Source of the DNA: Candidatus Yonathbacteria bacterium
Lineage (GTDB): Bacteria; Patescibacteriota; Minisyncoccia; Phycocordibacterales; JACNGX01
Direction: 5' to 3'
NCBI GenBank assembly: GCA_013334825.1
Contig: JAAXWR010000001.1
Span: 340,731 to 404,730, forward strand
Length of the DNA: 64,000 nucleotides
The translations under genes were made by a program, and so were the position numbers. Below the pieces are notes generated by a model. That model ran no database searches, was not told the origin of the DNA, and saw nothing but the letters and a program-made list of their open reading frames with translations. Each line of letters starts with the position of its first letter. The first letter of the stretch is position 1. Shown piece by piece: positions 7,212 to 55,010 of the stretch.

Positions 7212-7463
7212 ATGCTGAAAAAACTTTTTCATTTGGTTCTCATTCTCGTTGCCCTGTGTGCAGGGCTTTACGGGATTGCTTTTTTCCTCCTCCCCTTTTT
7301 GGGGCAACCGGGGGGAATGATTGAAATCGGGGTATTTAACCCCGACGGCACCATTGACCTCACTCCTCAGGGATACTGGGGTCTGGGAAAGACCCTCGGT
7401 ATCCTCCTTGGGGGATATGTGGGGTTCAGATATTTTCTCAGGGAGGTAGCCACTTCTCTTTGA
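7212..7463 (+). CDS. Small membrane protein
   Basis: MLKKLFHLVLILVALCAGLYGIAFFLL..., hydrophobic. The ORF-track start at 7164 would overlap the promoter, so the start at 7212 is preferred. Confidence 0.45.
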   Translation: MLKKLFHLVLILVALCAGLYGIAFFLLPFLGQPGGMIEIGVFNPDGTIDLTPQGYWGLGKTLGILLGGYVGFRYFLREVATSL

Positions 7464-7496
7464 AATGTATCGGAGATGTTAGGAGATTGTGAAAAG

Positions 7497-7524
7497 GCGG
7501 GACGCAAGTCCCGCCTTCTTTTTA
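7497..7524 (+). terminator. Rho-independent terminator
   Basis: ggcgggac-gcaa-gtcccgcc followed by ttcttttt. Confidence 0.8.
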
Positions 7525-7563
7525 TAATGAGAAAAATATTATACCCTATTCTTTTAAGGAGAA

Positions 7564-7680
7564 GGCCTTTGACCTCCGCATTGTCCCGATGAATTGTGGT
7601 GGACCCTACCGGATTTGAATCCCGAGCTTCGTGGAAGCCCGAGGACAGGCCTTTGACCTCCGCATTGTCCCGATGAATTG
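7564..7680 (-). repeat. Tandem duplicated 3'-half fragments of tRNA-Ala(TGC)
   Basis: Reading the minus strand after the tRNA CCA end: CAATTCATCGGGAC + AATGCGGAGGTCA + a 34-nt insert + TTCAAATCCGGTAGGGTCCACCA. Then CAATTCATCGGGAC+AATGCGGAGGTCAAAGGCC occurs again. This is a direct read of the sequence. Confidence 0.85.
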
Positions 7681-7756
7681 TGGTGGACCCTACCGGATTT
7701 GAACCGGTGACCTCCGCATTGCAAATGCGGCGCTCTACCAACTAAGCTAAGGGCCC
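7681..7756 (-). tRNA. tRNA-Ala(TGC)
   Basis: GGGCCCTTAGCTTAGTTGGTAGAGCGCCGCATTTGCAATGCGGAGGTCACCGGTTCAAATCCGGTAGGGTCCACCA. G3:U70 pair, anticodon loop TTTGCAA, CCA encoded. Confidence 0.95.
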
Positions 7757-8026
7757 ACCACAATTCACCGAGGATTCTCGATTTCTTTTTGCTAAATACT
7801 CCTCAATCTTACTTCTACTCTTCCAAGATTTCAAGAGGCGCTCTTTTTTTATCGCCTCAGATCTCGTAGGTGATATTTCGTATGTTTCCAATATCCAGGG
7901 TTTGTATGCTTTGGTCGATGTTACCAAACCATCATTGTGTCGTTTCAATCGAATATCCATATTGAGACAACTTCCGATATAGTATCTATTATTTTTTAAC
8001 GAACGAAGAATGTATGTATAATACAT
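7742..8026 (-). CDS. GIY-YIG nuclease family protein (YhbQ/UPF0213-like)
   Basis: MYYTYILRSLKNNRYYIGSCLNMDIRLKRHN...KPWILETYE...EAIKKERLLKSW matches the YxYxL...YIG...R..H...E GIY-YIG pattern. The last about 5 codons overlap the 5' end of tRNA-Ala on the same strand. The ORF-track start at 8047 is a TTG extension. Confidence 0.75.
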   Translation of the reverse strand: MYYTYILRSLKNNRYYIGSCLNMDIRLKRHNDGLVTSTKAYKPWILETYEISPTRSEAIKKERLLKSWKSRSKIEEYLAKRNRESSVNCGGPLA

Positions 8027-8044
8027 AGCAAAAAGAAATCGGAA

Positions 8045-8110
8045 CAAATGCGGCGCTCTTTGCCTTGCCGAAGCTTAAGCGAAGGCAGGTACCAACTAAG
8101 CTAAGGACCC
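8045..8110 (-). pseudogene. Degenerate 5' fragment of a tRNA-Ala gene with a 31-nt hairpin insertion
   Basis: GGGTCCTTAGCTTAGTTGGTA-[CCTGCCTTCGCTTAAGCTTCGGCAAGGCAAA]-GAGCGCCGCATTTG matches tRNA-Ala positions 1-35 except for the insertion. It breaks in the anticodon loop. Confidence 0.7.
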
Positions 8111-8250
8111 TTGAGAACATCAAGATACTATCTCGATGCCTTCAAGCATAGCATTCTCTGGCGATAGAGACAATACTTATGACTTATCTCCCGTATGAAA
8201 ATTAAATGTATTCCCCACTTGCTTCAGCCAAACAGAGAATGAGTATATAT

Positions 8251-8279
8251 AAAAAAATCCGCCCCTTGGGGGGCGGGAT
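8251..8279 (-). terminator. Rho-independent terminator
   Basis: atccgcccc-ttgg-ggggcggat with a T-tract on the minus strand. Confidence 0.75.
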
Positions 8280-8284
8280 AGATA

Positions 8285-8809
8285 TCAACCAGCAATAACA
8301 GGATTTTTTCTTCCTTTTTTCTTTTCAGGAAGAAACACCTGATACCGCACATTAGCGGTACCCGCTTTTACAATCCCGAGGCGTTTTGCTGCCTCAAGTG
8401 AAAGATCGAACTTCCTGTCGCCCACATAGGGACCACGGTCGTTGATCCTTACCCAAACGGATTTTCCGTTTATGGGGTTATACACGTAGACCCGTGTATT
8501 GAAGGGTAATTTTTTGTTCGCCGCGGTGAGCGCGTTCATGTTGAAACGCTCGCCGTTGGCAGTTTTTCTGCCATGGAATTTATCTGCATAATAAGAGACC
8601 TTTGCTGTACCAGCAGCATCAGGTTTCTTTTCTTTTGCAATGAGTACCGACGTATCCGCCGGCGTTGGTTTTTCATCCGCCATGGCAGTTTCTGTGAGTG
8701 CCGATGGGGAGATTTGTTTATTCTTCACTACCGAAGCGCCCGAATTGTCGGGTGCAAACTTTAGGATAAGGGCAATGAAGACCAAACAAACAAGAACTGT
8801 ATGTTTCAT
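8285..8809 (-). CDS. rlpA: RlpA-like septal ring lytic transglycosylase (double-psi beta-barrel)
   Basis: VSYYADKFHGRKTANGERF...NTRVYVYNPINGKSVWVRINDRGPYVGDRKFDLSLEAAKRLG is the classic RlpA DPBB signature. It has an N-terminal signal/anchor. Confidence 0.85.
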   Translation of the reverse strand: MKHTVLVCLVFIALILKFAPDNSGASVVKNKQISPSALTETAMADEKPTPADTSVLIAKEKKPDAAGTAKVSYYADKFHGRKTANGERFNMNALTAANKKLPFNTRVYVYNPINGKSVWVRINDRGPYVGDRKFDLSLEAAKRLGIVKAGTANVRYQVFLPEKKKGRKNPVIAG

Positions 8810-26742: not shown

Positions 26743-26975
26743 TGCCTTCGCTAGAGTCTCAATATTGCATGACAAAAATATTTAGAAGCTTCGGCAAGGT
26801 AAGACAGGCGGCAAGCAAAGCAACTGCTTGCTTTGCGACAGGAATCGAACCGAGCACCACTTTTGATATTGCAAAAGTGGTGCTCGACATCCAGCGATAC
26901 TTATAAAAATGCGAGTGCTCGGAGTATTTTTGTTAGTAATCGCGGGACGATTCCTGTGCCGCCCACCTGCCTTCG
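26743..26975 (+). mobile_element. Mini-element at the tRNA-Val 3' end, bounded by a 27-bp direct repeat of the tRNA 3' end
   Basis: DR gattcctgtgccgcccacctgccttcg occurs at 26724-26750 and 26949-26975. The interior holds an 11-bp-stem hairpin (gcaagcaaagc/gcttgctttgc), an inverted tRNA T-arm fragment (ggaatcgaacc), a 14-bp inverted repeat cgagcaccactttt/aaaagtggtgctcg, and CGGGAC immediately before DR2. Confidence 0.6.
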
Positions 26976-27106
26976 GTTCGCTGAAGCGAACCTACGGCGT
27001 GGCAAGCCCGCTTTTGTTTGTACATACAATTGCGAGTATAATGAAAATAATTATTGTACGCGAAAGCGACCTTCGGTTCGCTGAAGCGAACCTACAGTGT
27101 GACAAA

Positions 27107-32046: not shown

Positions 32047-32120
32047 CGGGCTATCGTACAGTGGTAGTATGCATCCATGGGGTGGATGTGGCAGCGGTTC
32101 GATTCCGCTTAGCCCGACCA
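32047..32120 (+). tRNA. tRNA-Pro(GGG)
   Basis: CGGGCTATCGTACAGTGGTAGTATGCATCCATGGGGTGGATGTGGCAGCGGTTCGATTCCGCTTAGCCCGACCA. Anticodon loop ATGGGGT with G37. Confidence 0.85.
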
Positions 32121-32187
32121 TTCGACTTCGTTCGGCTTCAAGAAATGAAGCCTCACTCCGCTCATGGTCTTCGACCTTTTTTACCAG

Positions 32188-32502
32188 ATGAATAGGGTTT
32201 CTCTTGAAAAGCCGAATGGAGTCGAATGCCCTGAGCCTGTCGAAGGGCTTTACTATGTTTACTTACTTCTTTGCTGTGACGAAAGCTTATACTGTGGGTC
32301 AACAAAAAATCTCAAGAACCGCACAAAAGAACATAATTCTGGCGAAGGAGCGGCGTGGACTAAAAGACGCCGCCCGGTAAAATTAATATATTACGAAACG
32401 TATGATTCACTTATTTCAGCTCGTCGTCGTGAAAGACAAATAAAAGGATGGACAATTCAAAAAAAATTTAATCTAATAAACGGTATTTGGCAGAAATTAT
32501 AA
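32188..32502 (+). CDS. GIY-YIG nuclease family protein (YhbQ/UPF0213-like), second copy
   Basis: GLYYVYLLLCCDESLYCGSTKNLKNRTKEHNSGEGAAWTKRRRPVKLIYYETYDSLISARRRERQIKGW. The start may be 32164 or 32188. It lies 45-70 nt downstream of tRNA-Pro(GGG). Confidence 0.75.
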   Translation: MNRVSLEKPNGVECPEPVEGLYYVYLLLCCDESLYCGSTKNLKNRTKEHNSGEGAAWTKRRRPVKLIYYETYDSLISARRRERQIKGWTIQKKFNLINGIWQKL

Positions 32503-33894: not shown

Positions 33895-34035
33895 TTTTAT
33901 AGTTTACCGTTTATAGTTTTCGTCTCCATATTTCATATTTCTATTTTCGTATTTCATCGTCTATAGTTTTCGTCTTCATATTCCTTATTTCTATTTTCTT
34001 ATTTCATCGTTTATCATTTTTCTTTTTGTTGTTTA
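33895..34035. repeat. Mosaic repeat module (ATAGTTTTCGTCTTCATATT / TTATTTCATCGTCTATAG units)
   Basis: Inverted-orientation copy of the AAACGATAAACTATAAAAAGAAAA...ATGAAATAAGAA module seen at other loci. Confidence 0.75.
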
Positions 34036-34039
34036 TTAT

Positions 34040-34843
34040 TCATGTTCTTTTTTCAATCAATACCTTAATTTCAGACATCGCATCCTCCGTCGCTTTCTCC
34101 CCTATCGCAATCTTTTCTGCTCCATCAACAAAATTGAAAAAATCAAATACATCACTTGTATGCGTATCGATATCAATAACAATATCAGCATCTTCAACAT
34201 TTTGAAGCGCGAGGTGATACCGTAAAATATTCAACGAGTCATATGCGACGGTATACCATGCCGGCTTTTTCTTTTCATTGTAATAATGTTTGTCCAAATT
34301 CACCGCAATGACAATATCAGCGCCCATTTGACGGACGGTCTCGACAGGAACAGGTGCGGACAATCCACCATCAGCATAGACATGTCCATCAATTTCTTCT
34401 GACTTAAATGCAACAGGCACAGAAATACTCGCTCGTATAGCAGTCGCCATATCACCAGAATTGAATGCATGAAATACCCCTGTCTGCATATCAGTCGCAA
34501 TAGCAGAAAATGGGATAGGACAGTCTTCAAATGTATTTGCTTTCAACTCATGACGGATAAACTCTTTGACTTTATTACCTCCGATAAGTCCTCGTTTTAA
34601 TTTTGGATCCACCATGGCAAACATCATACGCCAGTCTGCATCCCATGAAATCTTTTCAATATCCTCTATAGAACGTCCCGACGCATACAGCCCCCCAATC
34701 ATGGCACCGATGCTTGAACCGGCAATCATATCAATCGGAATATTATGCGCGTGAAGTGCTTTGATAACACCAATATGCGCAAGGCCTTTTGACCCTCCGC
34801 TTCCTAATGCGAGTCCTACTTTCTGCCGTGTACGTGTATGCAT
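34040..34843 (-). CDS. Patatin-like phospholipase
   Basis: GLALGSGGSKGLAHIGV (GxGxxG), GSSIG (GxSxG) and DGG motifs. Confidence 0.88.
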   Translation of the reverse strand: MHTRTRQKVGLALGSGGSKGLAHIGVIKALHAHNIPIDMIAGSSIGAMIGGLYASGRSIEDIEKISWDADWRMMFAMVDPKLKRGLIGGNKVKEFIRHELKANTFEDCPIPFSAIATDMQTGVFHAFNSGDMATAIRASISVPVAFKSEEIDGHVYADGGLSAPVPVETVRQMGADIVIAVNLDKHYYNEKKKPAWYTVAYDSLNILRYHLALQNVEDADIVIDIDTHTSDVFDFFNFVDGAEKIAIGEKATEDAMSEIKVLIEKRT

Positions 34844-54722: not shown

Positions 54723-55010
54723 CAAATGTAAAACGGCCTTATGGGCCGTTTTACATTTGTTGCCAGAAGCAGGGCGACTGCTCGCCCTGCGACTAGGACT
54801 CGAACGGCTCGGCGATGTCGGACCGAGCACCACTTACAAAAAATTCCTAAAAAGTGTTAGAGATATTTTCCAAATAATAAAGCCTCTCTATGATGTTATC
54901 TGAAAGTGGTGCTCGAGACGACCGCGAGCCGCGTCCAGGAGTACTTTGCGTATTGCGAATACTTGGAGCAATACGCTTAGTAACTCCGGGACGAGTCCTA
55001 GTCTGGCAAC
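54723..55010 (+). mobile_element. Mini-element at the tRNA-Gln 3' end bounded by an 18-bp direct repeat of the tRNA 3' end. It is homologous to the tRNA-Val element.
   Basis: DR gagtcctagtctggcaac occurs at 54705-54722 and 54993-55010. The interior holds a perfect 16-bp-stem hairpin (caaatgtaaaacggcc/ggccgttttacatttg), the hairpin cagggcgactgctcgccctg, an inverted tRNA-Gln T-arm fragment (gactaggactcgaac), an inverted repeat ggaccgagcaccactt...aagtggtgctcgag, and CGGGAC immediately before DR2. Confidence 0.6.

Follow-up and report, generated by a model that had tools for sequence, protein, structure and literature searches.

A tRNA-Ala gene of a Yonathbacteria bacterium is split by a cassette that carries a GIY-YIG nuclease gene and a complete tRNA-Ala and that recurs in Patescibacteria

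An insertion into an essential RNA gene can be tolerated when it is a self-splicing intron or when an integrase rebuilds the 3' end of the gene. A third way, in which the insertion brings along a complete replacement gene, is suggested by a locus in the genome of a Candidatus Yonathbacteria bacterium (GenBank assembly GCA_013334825.1, contig JAAXWR010000001.1), of which we analysed 64,000 nucleotides (nt), positions 340,731 to 404,730, here called the window. The resident alanine transfer RNA gene of this window, tRNA-Ala(UGC), is broken in two by a 377-nt cassette lying precisely between nt 35 and 36 of the anticodon; in the cassette, a GIY-YIG nuclease gene is followed by an intact tRNA-Ala(UGC).

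Several described systems resemble this arrangement in part. Elements with a tyrosine integrase use their recombinase to target tRNA genes, of which they duplicate and restore the 3' part only. They share with the cassette a conserved tRNA target, a sequence that keeps the gene working and repeated, sometimes tandem, tRNA fragments; the cassette, however, carries a whole tRNA gene, leaves both old halves behind and has a nuclease as its sole protein. The pieces of archaeal split and multi-intron tRNAs are joined in RNA by a splicing endonuclease at bulge-helix-bulge motifs. There, too, tRNA genes lie in pieces, with insertions at several loops and complementary flanks, but the cassette has no bulge-helix-bulge and joining is not needed. 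Miniature inverted-repeat transposable elements (MITEs), IS200/IS605 and REP/RAYT elements have short terminal inverted repeats, miniature non-autonomous copies and hairpin-forming ends. All of these are also present in the cassette family, which differs in lacking a known transposase and target duplication and in carrying its cargo in hairpin loops.

Among GIY-YIG enzymes, the nearest parallel is SegB, which is larger than the cassette's protein and has a DNA-binding part. This homing endonuclease of the T4/T6 tRNA cluster is reported to promote the inheritance of itself and of neighbouring tRNA genes by cutting the rival allele (PMC2330249). It has a C-terminal stretch of at least 28 amino acids (aa), and tandem amplification of the tRNA-segB unit requires it (PMC13096335). 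In both systems a GIY-YIG gene lies among tRNA genes, and the amplification of tRNA-segB parallels a tandem unit in the window. In contrast, SegB is a phage enzyme encoded between genes, with neither palindromic framework nor miniatures, whereas the cassette sits inside a tRNA gene of a cellular genome and its protein is a bare domain of 80-94 aa whose fold is nearer to Slx1/YhbQ than to I-TevI. Group I introns, self-splicing and sometimes with an HNH endonuclease gene, occupy the 35/36 position of Patescibacteria tRNA-Asn and tRNA-Asp (Nakagawa et al. 2026, PMC13011429). They have in common with the cassette the phylum, the unusual insertion point in the anticodon loop and, in some cases, an endonuclease gene inside, but the cassette has no ribozyme match, the gene around it falls into decay, and a second tRNA gene, not splicing, would restore function. 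Finally, small GIY-YIG genes are found in the ribosomal RNA (rRNA) genes of candidate phyla radiation (CPR) bacteria, within insertions that belong to neither the group I nor the group II introns (Tsurumaki et al. 2024, PMC11270868). These are the same bacteria, and the genes likewise lie inside structural-RNA genes, but the host is rRNA and there is no replacement gene; we set them beside the cassette by their published description, which comes without ends or structure. Altogether, the cassette is set apart from the nearest reports by its position inside a gene, the full replacement, the conserved hairpin framework and the miniature copies. The literature searched offered no description of a cassette of a GIY-YIG gene plus a tRNA.

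The split gene and its cassette

The cassette consists of the left end TYCCGAT, a helix (P1) enclosing the GIY-YIG open reading frame (ORF), the junction motif ATCGAGRATCC (J), a helix (P2) enclosing the complete tRNA-Ala(UGC), and the right end ATCGGGA (Table 1). Because both breaks in the surrounding tRNA remains are the same G35|C36 break, the ORF and the intact tRNA form a single inserted unit and are not neighbours of a scar. A first-pass annotation, whose listed features were all found where it had placed them and far beyond chance, had taken the locus for the scar of nuclease- or recombinase-mediated events. The tie between dead tRNA-Ala remains and a GIY-YIG gene stands, but the remains are the halves of one gene around a single 377-nt cassette. 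The inner tRNA is presumably the cargo of the cassette and the working gene.

The annotation's description of the pieces, namely a 5' fragment broken at position 35 with a palindrome in its D arm, a first 3' half with a 34-nt insert, tandem copies of CAATTCATCGGGAC+AATGCGGAGGTCA and an ORF reading 15 nt into the tRNA, agrees with what we observe. Once the 31-nt insert is removed, the outer 5' half equals the intact tRNA at 34 of 35 positions. All 37 tRNA-derived bases of the first 3' fragment are those of the intact tRNA, the 34-nt insert standing for ACCGG, and 14 of 14 bases match in the second fragment. The copies of CAATTCATCGGGAC+AATGCGGAGGTCA belong to a direct repeat of 57 nt without a single mismatch (100% identity; 7563-7619 and 7647-7703, spaced 84 nt). 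The cassette right end CAATTCATCGGGA is present after the intact tRNA and again before the second 3' fragment. The ORF overlaps nt 1-15 of the tRNA with 12 sense nt and its stop codon. In a comparison set beforehand as a refuting test, the three fragments matched tRNA-Ala(UGC) specifically, with local alignment scores of 33, 32 and 14 compared with at most 19, 17 and 8 for the six other tRNAs of the window. The fragments are non-functional remains of a tRNA-Ala gene.

The ends TTCCGAT and ATCGGGA make an imperfect 7-nt inverted repeat. P1 is a perfect 16-bp helix around the ORF that reaches the start codon, while P2 is a 14-bp helix of tRNA leader and trailer that prolongs the acceptor stem. 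Folded as a single strand, the outer anticodon stem, P1 and P2 form a three-way junction in which nt 35 and 36 are brought together; on the sense strand the fold energy of the locus is -101 kcal/mol versus -65 for shuffled sequences (z = -7.0). The pairing of P1 and P2 is maintained across about 50 different sequences. Among the relatives described below we counted 44 distinct P1 arm pairs, and 63 distinct P2 arm pairs average 13.2 bp versus 7.2 bp with partners swapped. In locus L001, P1 shows a compensatory change from T:A to C:G. The 134 nt outside the ORF are 94% identical between Yonathbacteria and Moranbacteria, compared with 68% for the ORF core. The cassette contains no transposase of a known type (no DDE, HUH or serine/tyrosine recombinase). 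Nor was a target-site duplication found: the cassette and its miniatures join their flanks directly, and the 57-nt duplicate accompanies only the 27-nt hairpin unit. We take the sequences TCCCGA/TCGGGA to resemble the sites of small GIY-YIG restriction enzymes, a likeness on which our argument does not draw.

The 94-aa protein matches Pfam PF01541 over residues 1-73 (56.2 bits, cut-off 22.6; E=4e-15) and is, like the neighbouring RlpA protein, 100% identical to a protein of a Ca. Yonathbacteria metagenome-assembled genome. In 23 cassette ORFs, residues Y5, Y16, G18, R26, H30, N31 and E62 show conservation of at least 95%. Purifying selection acts on the ORF, and across 61 pairs the median ratio of nonsynonymous to synonymous substitution rates (dN/dS) in the family is 0.23. 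The structure model (predicted local distance difference test, pLDDT, 88.7) consists of a bare GIY-YIG domain and one long C-terminal helix. Sequence matches in the PDB were 1zg2 (E=0.004), 1ywl and Slx1; Foldseek likewise placed 1zg2 (UPF0213 protein BH0048) first, followed by Slx1 (1.4-2.2 A over about 70 residues), both ahead of the I-TevI catalytic domain. By its model it is a nuclease of the YhbQ/Slx1 type made up of a bare catalytic domain, at 80-94 aa in total. PHROGs returned a weak 'homing endonuclease' match and NCBIfam a sub-threshold match only. The proteins of the UGC subgroup share the C-terminus AKRNRESSV.CGGPLA; as the underlying stretch is 94% identical, far above the ORF core, this reflects nucleotide conservation of P1, J, P2 and the tRNA. 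In the CGC subgroup (locus L009) the ORF ends before P1.

Two metagenome contigs (L070 and L107), 95.3% identical over about 990 aligned bases and with the same neighbours, represent a sister strain. They carry the cassette and a truncated 3' fragment, CAATGCGGAGGTCAAAGGCCT. Since the sister 5' half is normal tRNA sequence, the D-loop palindrome is an insertion in the window strain. The 84-nt unit that the sister contigs also lack is composed of a 27-nt hairpin ending in TCGGGA, which occurs once in the window, and the 57-nt exact duplicate; the duplicate includes locus-specific bases and was thus made in place, leaving the presumed working tRNA intact. Assemblers can create or collapse exact short tandem repeats, and the absence of the unit from the sister contigs would suit an assembly artefact of a metagenome-assembled genome. 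To such an origin of the tandem 3' copies we give almost no credence, as the unit holds the unique 27-nt hairpin and tandem 3' halves, each after a cassette end, appear in independent assemblies (L023 and L025).

Table 1. Features of the tRNA-Ala(UGC) locus, in window coordinates
Feature	Position	Strand	Remarks
Intact inner tRNA-Ala(UGC), G3:U70, encoded CCA	7681-7756	minus	ARAGORN; Rfam 74.3 bits
Outer 5' half of split tRNA-Ala(UGC), nt 1-35, ending in G35	8045-8110	minus	uninterrupted in L070/L107
31-nt palindromic insert CCTGCCTTCGCTTAAGCTTCGGCAAGGCAAA in D loop of dead 5' half	8059-8089	minus	absent from L070/L107
377-nt cassette, left end TTCCGAT, right end ATCGGGA, between G35 and C36	7668-8044	minus	
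GIY-YIG nuclease ORF, 94 aa + stop; ATG at 8026, stop 7744-7742	7742-8026	minus	Pfam PF01541
P1 5' arm CGATTTCTTTTTGCTA, ending at A of start codon	8026-8041	minus	perfect 16-bp complement of 7779-7794
P1 3' arm TAGCAAAAAGAAATCG	7779-7794	minus	pairs with 8026-8041; helix predicted in whole-locus fold
Junction motif J, ATCGAGAATCC (family consensus near-palindromic)	7772-7782	minus	kept in all cassettes and miniatures
P2 5' arm = tRNA leader CGGTGAATTGTGGT	7757-7770	minus	pairs with ACCACAATTCATCG at 7671-7684
P2 3' arm = tRNA ACCA + trailer CAATTCATCG	7671-7684	minus	then GGA (7668-7670) = cassette end
First 3' fragment, C36 to CCA	7597-7667	minus	matches intact tRNA; order: nt 36-49 CAATGCGGAGGTCA (7667-7654), AAGGCCT (7653-7647), 27-nt hairpin GTCCTCGGGCTTCCACGAAGCTCGGGA (7646-7620), T loop to CCA (7619-7597)
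Second copy of cassette right end CAATTCATCGGGA	7584-7596	minus	within 57-nt exact repeat
Second, truncated 3' fragment (nt 36-49 + AAGGCCT)	7563-7583	minus	sister strain's only 3' fragment
84-nt unit (57-nt duplicate + 27-nt hairpin)	7620-7703, equally placeable at 7563-7646	minus	absent from L070/L107
GC-rich hairpin, T runs on both sides	7494-7517		likely terminator, closing the tRNA-locus transcript

Recurrence, decay and miniature copies

The cassette is no local accident: its family is widespread in Patescibacteria, and the type is common in CPR bacteria. Two Moranbacteria proteins, 68% identical and ending in the same residues, are encoded at loci with the same layout and the 35/36 site, in the order host 5' half (nt 1-35), TTCCGAT, ORF, J, P2, tRNA-Ala(UGC), CAATCCATCGGGA, host 3' half. 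Ends, order and site are common to loci L001, L002, L009, L011, L023, L024, L174 and L175 and to metagenome loci; in L009 the design is found in tRNA-Ala(CGC), with both outer halves perfectly intact. A genome scan for the left junction gave 18 matches, six of them real and the other 12 due to chance in GC-rich bacteria. Five of the six real loci are labelled Patescibacteria and the sixth 'Fimivivens', but the latter is syntenic with a Moranbacteria locus. The flanks of that record (L025, labelled Candidatus Fimivivens) are near-identical to those of the Moranbacteria contig L023, and the record is probably mis-binned.

In metagenomes, the pattern J, 86-116 nt, TCGGGA retrieved at least 120 loci. 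Among the matches listed, 75 of 122 have a tRNA between J and the right end, and 55 of these are tRNA-Ala. On the same strand the inner tRNAs listed are Ala-CGC (29), Ala-UGC (26), Cys (6), Thr (3) and Ser (1), and on the opposite strand Glu (5), Lys (3), Arg (1) and Ser (1). Of the matches that have no tRNA, about 25 reflect chance in GC-rich DNA. In 29 of the matches listed, P1 measures 254-284 nt and contains a GIY-YIG ORF; others have a bare P1 hairpin. The tRNA-Ala(CGC) gene, which is empty in the window, is filled in 29 other loci among the matches listed. In all loci with readable flanks, these are the halves of a tRNA of the same anticodon and orientation as the inner one. Viral contigs scanned with the J motif gave 23 matches, all in one unrelated phage coding sequence.

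The protein family comprises at least 6973 clusters, and the named ones are nearly all Patescibacteria. Eight of nine GIY-YIG relatives sampled by protein adjoin tRNA genes or fragments. The ninth, in a Nomurabacteria contig (L173, 679-991), does not lie in a tRNA gene but at ATTG|CAAA between two protein genes; it shares the ends, J and an ORF within P1, and its P2 hairpin is empty. A Bacteroidota contig (L176, 150-580) carries a 5' fragment of tRNA-Ser(GCT) (leader and nt 1-21), a GIY-YIG gene and a full tRNA-Ser, indicating that tRNA-linked small GIY-YIG genes also occur outside Patescibacteria. In the comparison of the locus among relatives that the first-pass annotation had proposed, the cassette with its GIY-YIG gene recurs, and the D-loop hairpin and the tandem copy are secondary and missing from the sister strain.

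The insertion is precise. When the flanks were joined in silico, 12 of 42 loci yielded an ARAGORN-valid tRNA of the right isoacceptor, while the other 30 outer tRNAs were damaged. The 12 rebuilt genes are mostly just 70-78% identical to the inner tRNA, which shows that the inner gene did not arise by local copying of the outer one. Some outer halves are intact and others heavily decayed; that they vary and decay among relatives runs counter to the identical, selected arrangement which the first-pass annotation had named as a refutation of its reading. In the Moranbacteria group, where the insertion is shared by descent (the same topA-dprA...HAD neighbours), the outer 3' halves have differing small inserts at 40/41 and differing T-arm hairpins, and one member has lost its ORF. 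ORF-less cassettes are found in L025, L026 and L127. The syntenic loci L023 and L025 differ in the presence of the ORF and in the T-arm hairpin, and each has two diverged 3' halves with a cassette right end before each.

Miniature copies of 49-108 nt keep the ends, the P1 hairpin, J and the P2 hairpin. There are 40 distinct miniature sequences counting both strands, which correspond to about 20 elements because the framework is near-palindromic. They lie mainly in dead halves, in the D loop (TG|GT), the D stem (AG|CT), the T loop (TTC|GA) and at 40/41; direct inspection gave 40/41 and 53-57 as the recurrent insertion sites in outer 3' halves. Locus L175 has the same triad as the window, with a cassette at 35/36, a D-loop insert in the 5' half and a T-arm insert in the 3' half. 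In L174 the tRNA 5' half of a decayed cassette is followed by a second, complete cassette, a nesting that fits re-invasion of the inner tRNA. A nest of three layers is seen in L009 (1850-2480), where a degenerate outermost tRNA-Ala, split by an insert with the ends CCTTGCCGAAGC...GCGTAGGCAGG, surrounds the tRNA-Ala(CGC) that is split at 35/36 and holds the cassette with its own tRNA.

These data bear on whether the cassette could be an intron-like intervening sequence that is cut from RNA, the halves being ligated into a working outer tRNA. Ends and helices do bring nt 35 and 36 together, 35/36 is a known self-splicing group I site in Patescibacteria tRNA-Asn/Asp (PMC13011429), and the 12 outer tRNAs that are intact after removal of the cassette, as well as a weak sense-strand wobble bias in P2 (18 G:T versus 7 A:C), agree with such a role. 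We nevertheless regard it as very unlikely. In Rfam searches of 7400-8300 at E ≤ 1 and of four related loci at E ≤ 0.1, only tRNAs were matched, and a group I or other known RNA family was rejected on this basis; the 49-nt miniatures are far too small for such a ribozyme. Inspection also led us to reject a bulge-helix-bulge, as a 4x3 internal loop beside a helix, P0, lies between the facing borders, with no staggered 3-nt bulges. Moreover, 30 of the 42 outer tRNAs are broken; in the window the T-stem strand is gone, and in the sister strain the 3' half is truncated. Besides, an intron would have no need to bring along its own copy of the tRNA.

A classic mark of integrases is an intact tRNA with direct repeats of its 3' part further downstream, and the 84-nt unit resembles such repeats, as do the loci at tRNA-Val and tRNA-Gln described below. 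The pieces might then be att-site scars of integrase islands that had entered and left the tRNA gene, with the GIY-YIG gene as left-over cargo. Integrase integration, however, gives no 5' fragment and brings no whole tRNA. In addition, no integrase gene lies in or beside the cassette, the single ORF of which is a nuclease (the neighbours in L001 and L002 are topA, dprA and a HAD hydrolase), and one conserved set of ends, J, P1 and P2 accompanies the ORF and the tRNA across phylum-level lineages. An origin as att scars is accordingly held to be highly improbable.

A purely local rearrangement, by slippage or faulty repair at a palindromic tRNA gene beside a housekeeping YhbQ-type repair nuclease, deserves slightly more attention but is still unlikely. 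The YhbQ/Slx1-like fold would agree with it, as would the in-place origin of the 57-nt duplicate with its locus-specific sequence and the presence of a second small GIY-YIG gene (32149-32499) after a tRNA-Pro without the element framework. Yet inner and outer tRNAs usually differ, distant lineages have the framework and ORF inserted in the same gene at an identical nucleotide, with one further case that lies outside tRNA genes, and the ends are retained in ORF-less derivatives and in miniatures.

Two further observations concern the dead halves and bare ends. A second class of palindromes, rich in GC (CCTGCC...GGCAGG or CCCGYC...GGCGGG), recurs in the D loop or at 53/54 of dead halves in L024, L023, L118, L161, L143 and the window (8059-8089), the CCTGCC...GGCAGG hairpins being found in dead halves of other loci as well. 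In L005 (1600-1860), three tandem tRNA-like pseudogenes, in which the whole anticodon arm is replaced by TCCCGAAGTATATCGGGA, corresponding to bare element ends, lie upstream of a tRNA-Met and a GIY-YIG gene.

A candidate route of spread and its implications

Taken together, the conserved framework, the recurrence at one site and the decay around a complete inner tRNA suggest that the cassette is probably mobile and driven by its nuclease, and that it replaces the tRNA gene which it breaks, the cutting and copying being steps that we infer. The inner tRNA, as the working copy, would compensate for the destroyed gene, which would explain how a small genome can tolerate the insertion; after decay of the outer halves, the cassette could no longer be lost. 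The small YhbQ/Slx1-like nuclease, perhaps as a dimer, may make the DNA break that starts the spread, cutting at short, often palindromic sites (YG^CA, AG^CT, TC^GA and TG^GT) in the D, anticodon and T arms of tRNA genes. A copy that already bears the cassette would then serve as the repair template, with the flanking tRNA halves acting as homology arms, and the cassette would be copied in, in a homing-like manner. Dead halves might later gather miniature relatives and other small hairpins. P1 may limit translation by holding the start codon, and P2 may either help to release the tRNA from the transcript or be a DNA hairpin needed for mobility.

Several points weigh against this scheme. The 17-nt anticodon arm of the inner tRNA is that of the split gene in 5 of 26 cassettes, this lineage included. 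The insertion leaves its target intact, unlike that of a classical homing enzyme, and the protein has no extra DNA-binding domain. The nuclease could be cargo of an element moved by another enzyme. With two strains compared, the 84-nt unit could be an insertion in the window strain or a deletion in the sister strain. Furthermore, a search for an empty syntenic allele by way of the neighbouring RlpA gene retrieved none, but only the sister strain and a 1-kb contig ending 148 nt past that gene.

The first-pass annotation had also offered a homing endonuclease beside its own target as one reading. The GIY-YIG nuclease gene is there, but a classical sequence-specific homing enzyme is not established, as the protein has no DNA-binding domain and the target sequence is kept in the inner tRNA. 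Slx1 processes branched DNA, and a cut guided by structure or symmetry would fit better with the Slx1-like fold of the model, the palindromic ends and the often palindromic target tetranucleotides. The cassette would belong with nuclease-driven selfish DNA, and there is a fair chance that it represents a new class of transposable element.

A broader proposal, which we put forward tentatively and as somewhat less than an even prospect, is that of a new class of prokaryotic mobile DNA. Its sole protein would be a bare, probably dimeric Slx1/YhbQ-like GIY-YIG nuclease, and its body would be built of TCCCGAT...ATCGGGA palindromic hairpin modules with cargo in the loops. Such elements would mostly enter the arms of tRNA genes, at short palindromic sites, and other places only now and then; they would persist by gene-replacement addiction and would form tRNA-in-tRNA nests by repeated invasion. 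The GIY-YIG insertions reported from CPR rRNA genes would be cargo-less versions of these elements. Gene-replacement addiction, if true, means that an essential single-copy tRNA gene is destroyed and that its only working copy is supplied by the element. One element family would explain the tRNA fragments, the small hairpin inserts and the many tRNA-adjacent 'GIY-YIG family' genes of 80-95 aa in CPR genomes. The cassette may also move tRNA genes horizontally between lineages with tiny genomes, and it offers a testable role for the poorly understood nucleases of the YhbQ/UPF0213 type. Genome annotation is affected too: tRNA counts can be misled by outer halves and tRNA-like remains, and the annotated ORF runs into a tRNA.

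Other tRNA-associated elements in the window

Homologous mini-elements lie 3' of tRNA-Val (26743-26948) and tRNA-Gln (54724-54992). Their right parts of about 110 nt are about 70% identical and end in CGGGAC, and each mini-element is followed by an exact repeat of its tRNA from the T loop (56/57) to the 3' end. The recurrence of this hexamer, which the first-pass annotation had pointed out, is borne out by its position abutting the repeated tRNA 3' part at both loci (26943-26948 and 54987-54992); the hexamer itself is not rare. The 84-nt unit has the same layout as these loci, a tRNA followed by a unique part ending in CGGGA and a tRNA repeat from the T loop on. The mini-elements are a different type of element, without the P1-J-P2 framework. 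Each holds an inverted copy of a T arm (GTTCGAnTCCTnGT-CGC); a bridge-RNA or guide-like reading of this copy was rejected, there being no recombinase gene and no cassette framework. The CCTGCCTTCG...CGGCAAGG motif of the 31-nt D-loop insert also recurs 3' of tRNA-Val. Between the Val element and tRNA-Pro(CGG), a hairpin, CCTTCGGTTCGCTGAAGCGAACCTAC(G/A)G(C/T)GTG(G/A)CAA, is repeated at 26969-27010 and 27069-27106.

The second small GIY-YIG ORF of the window, on the plus strand (profile E=2.5e-20), lies directly 3' of tRNA-Pro(GGG) at 32047-32120, with neither tRNA fragments nor framework motifs around it. AT-rich tandem repeats of about 55 nt occupy 33900-34040, downstream of the uninterrupted tRNA-Ala(CGC).

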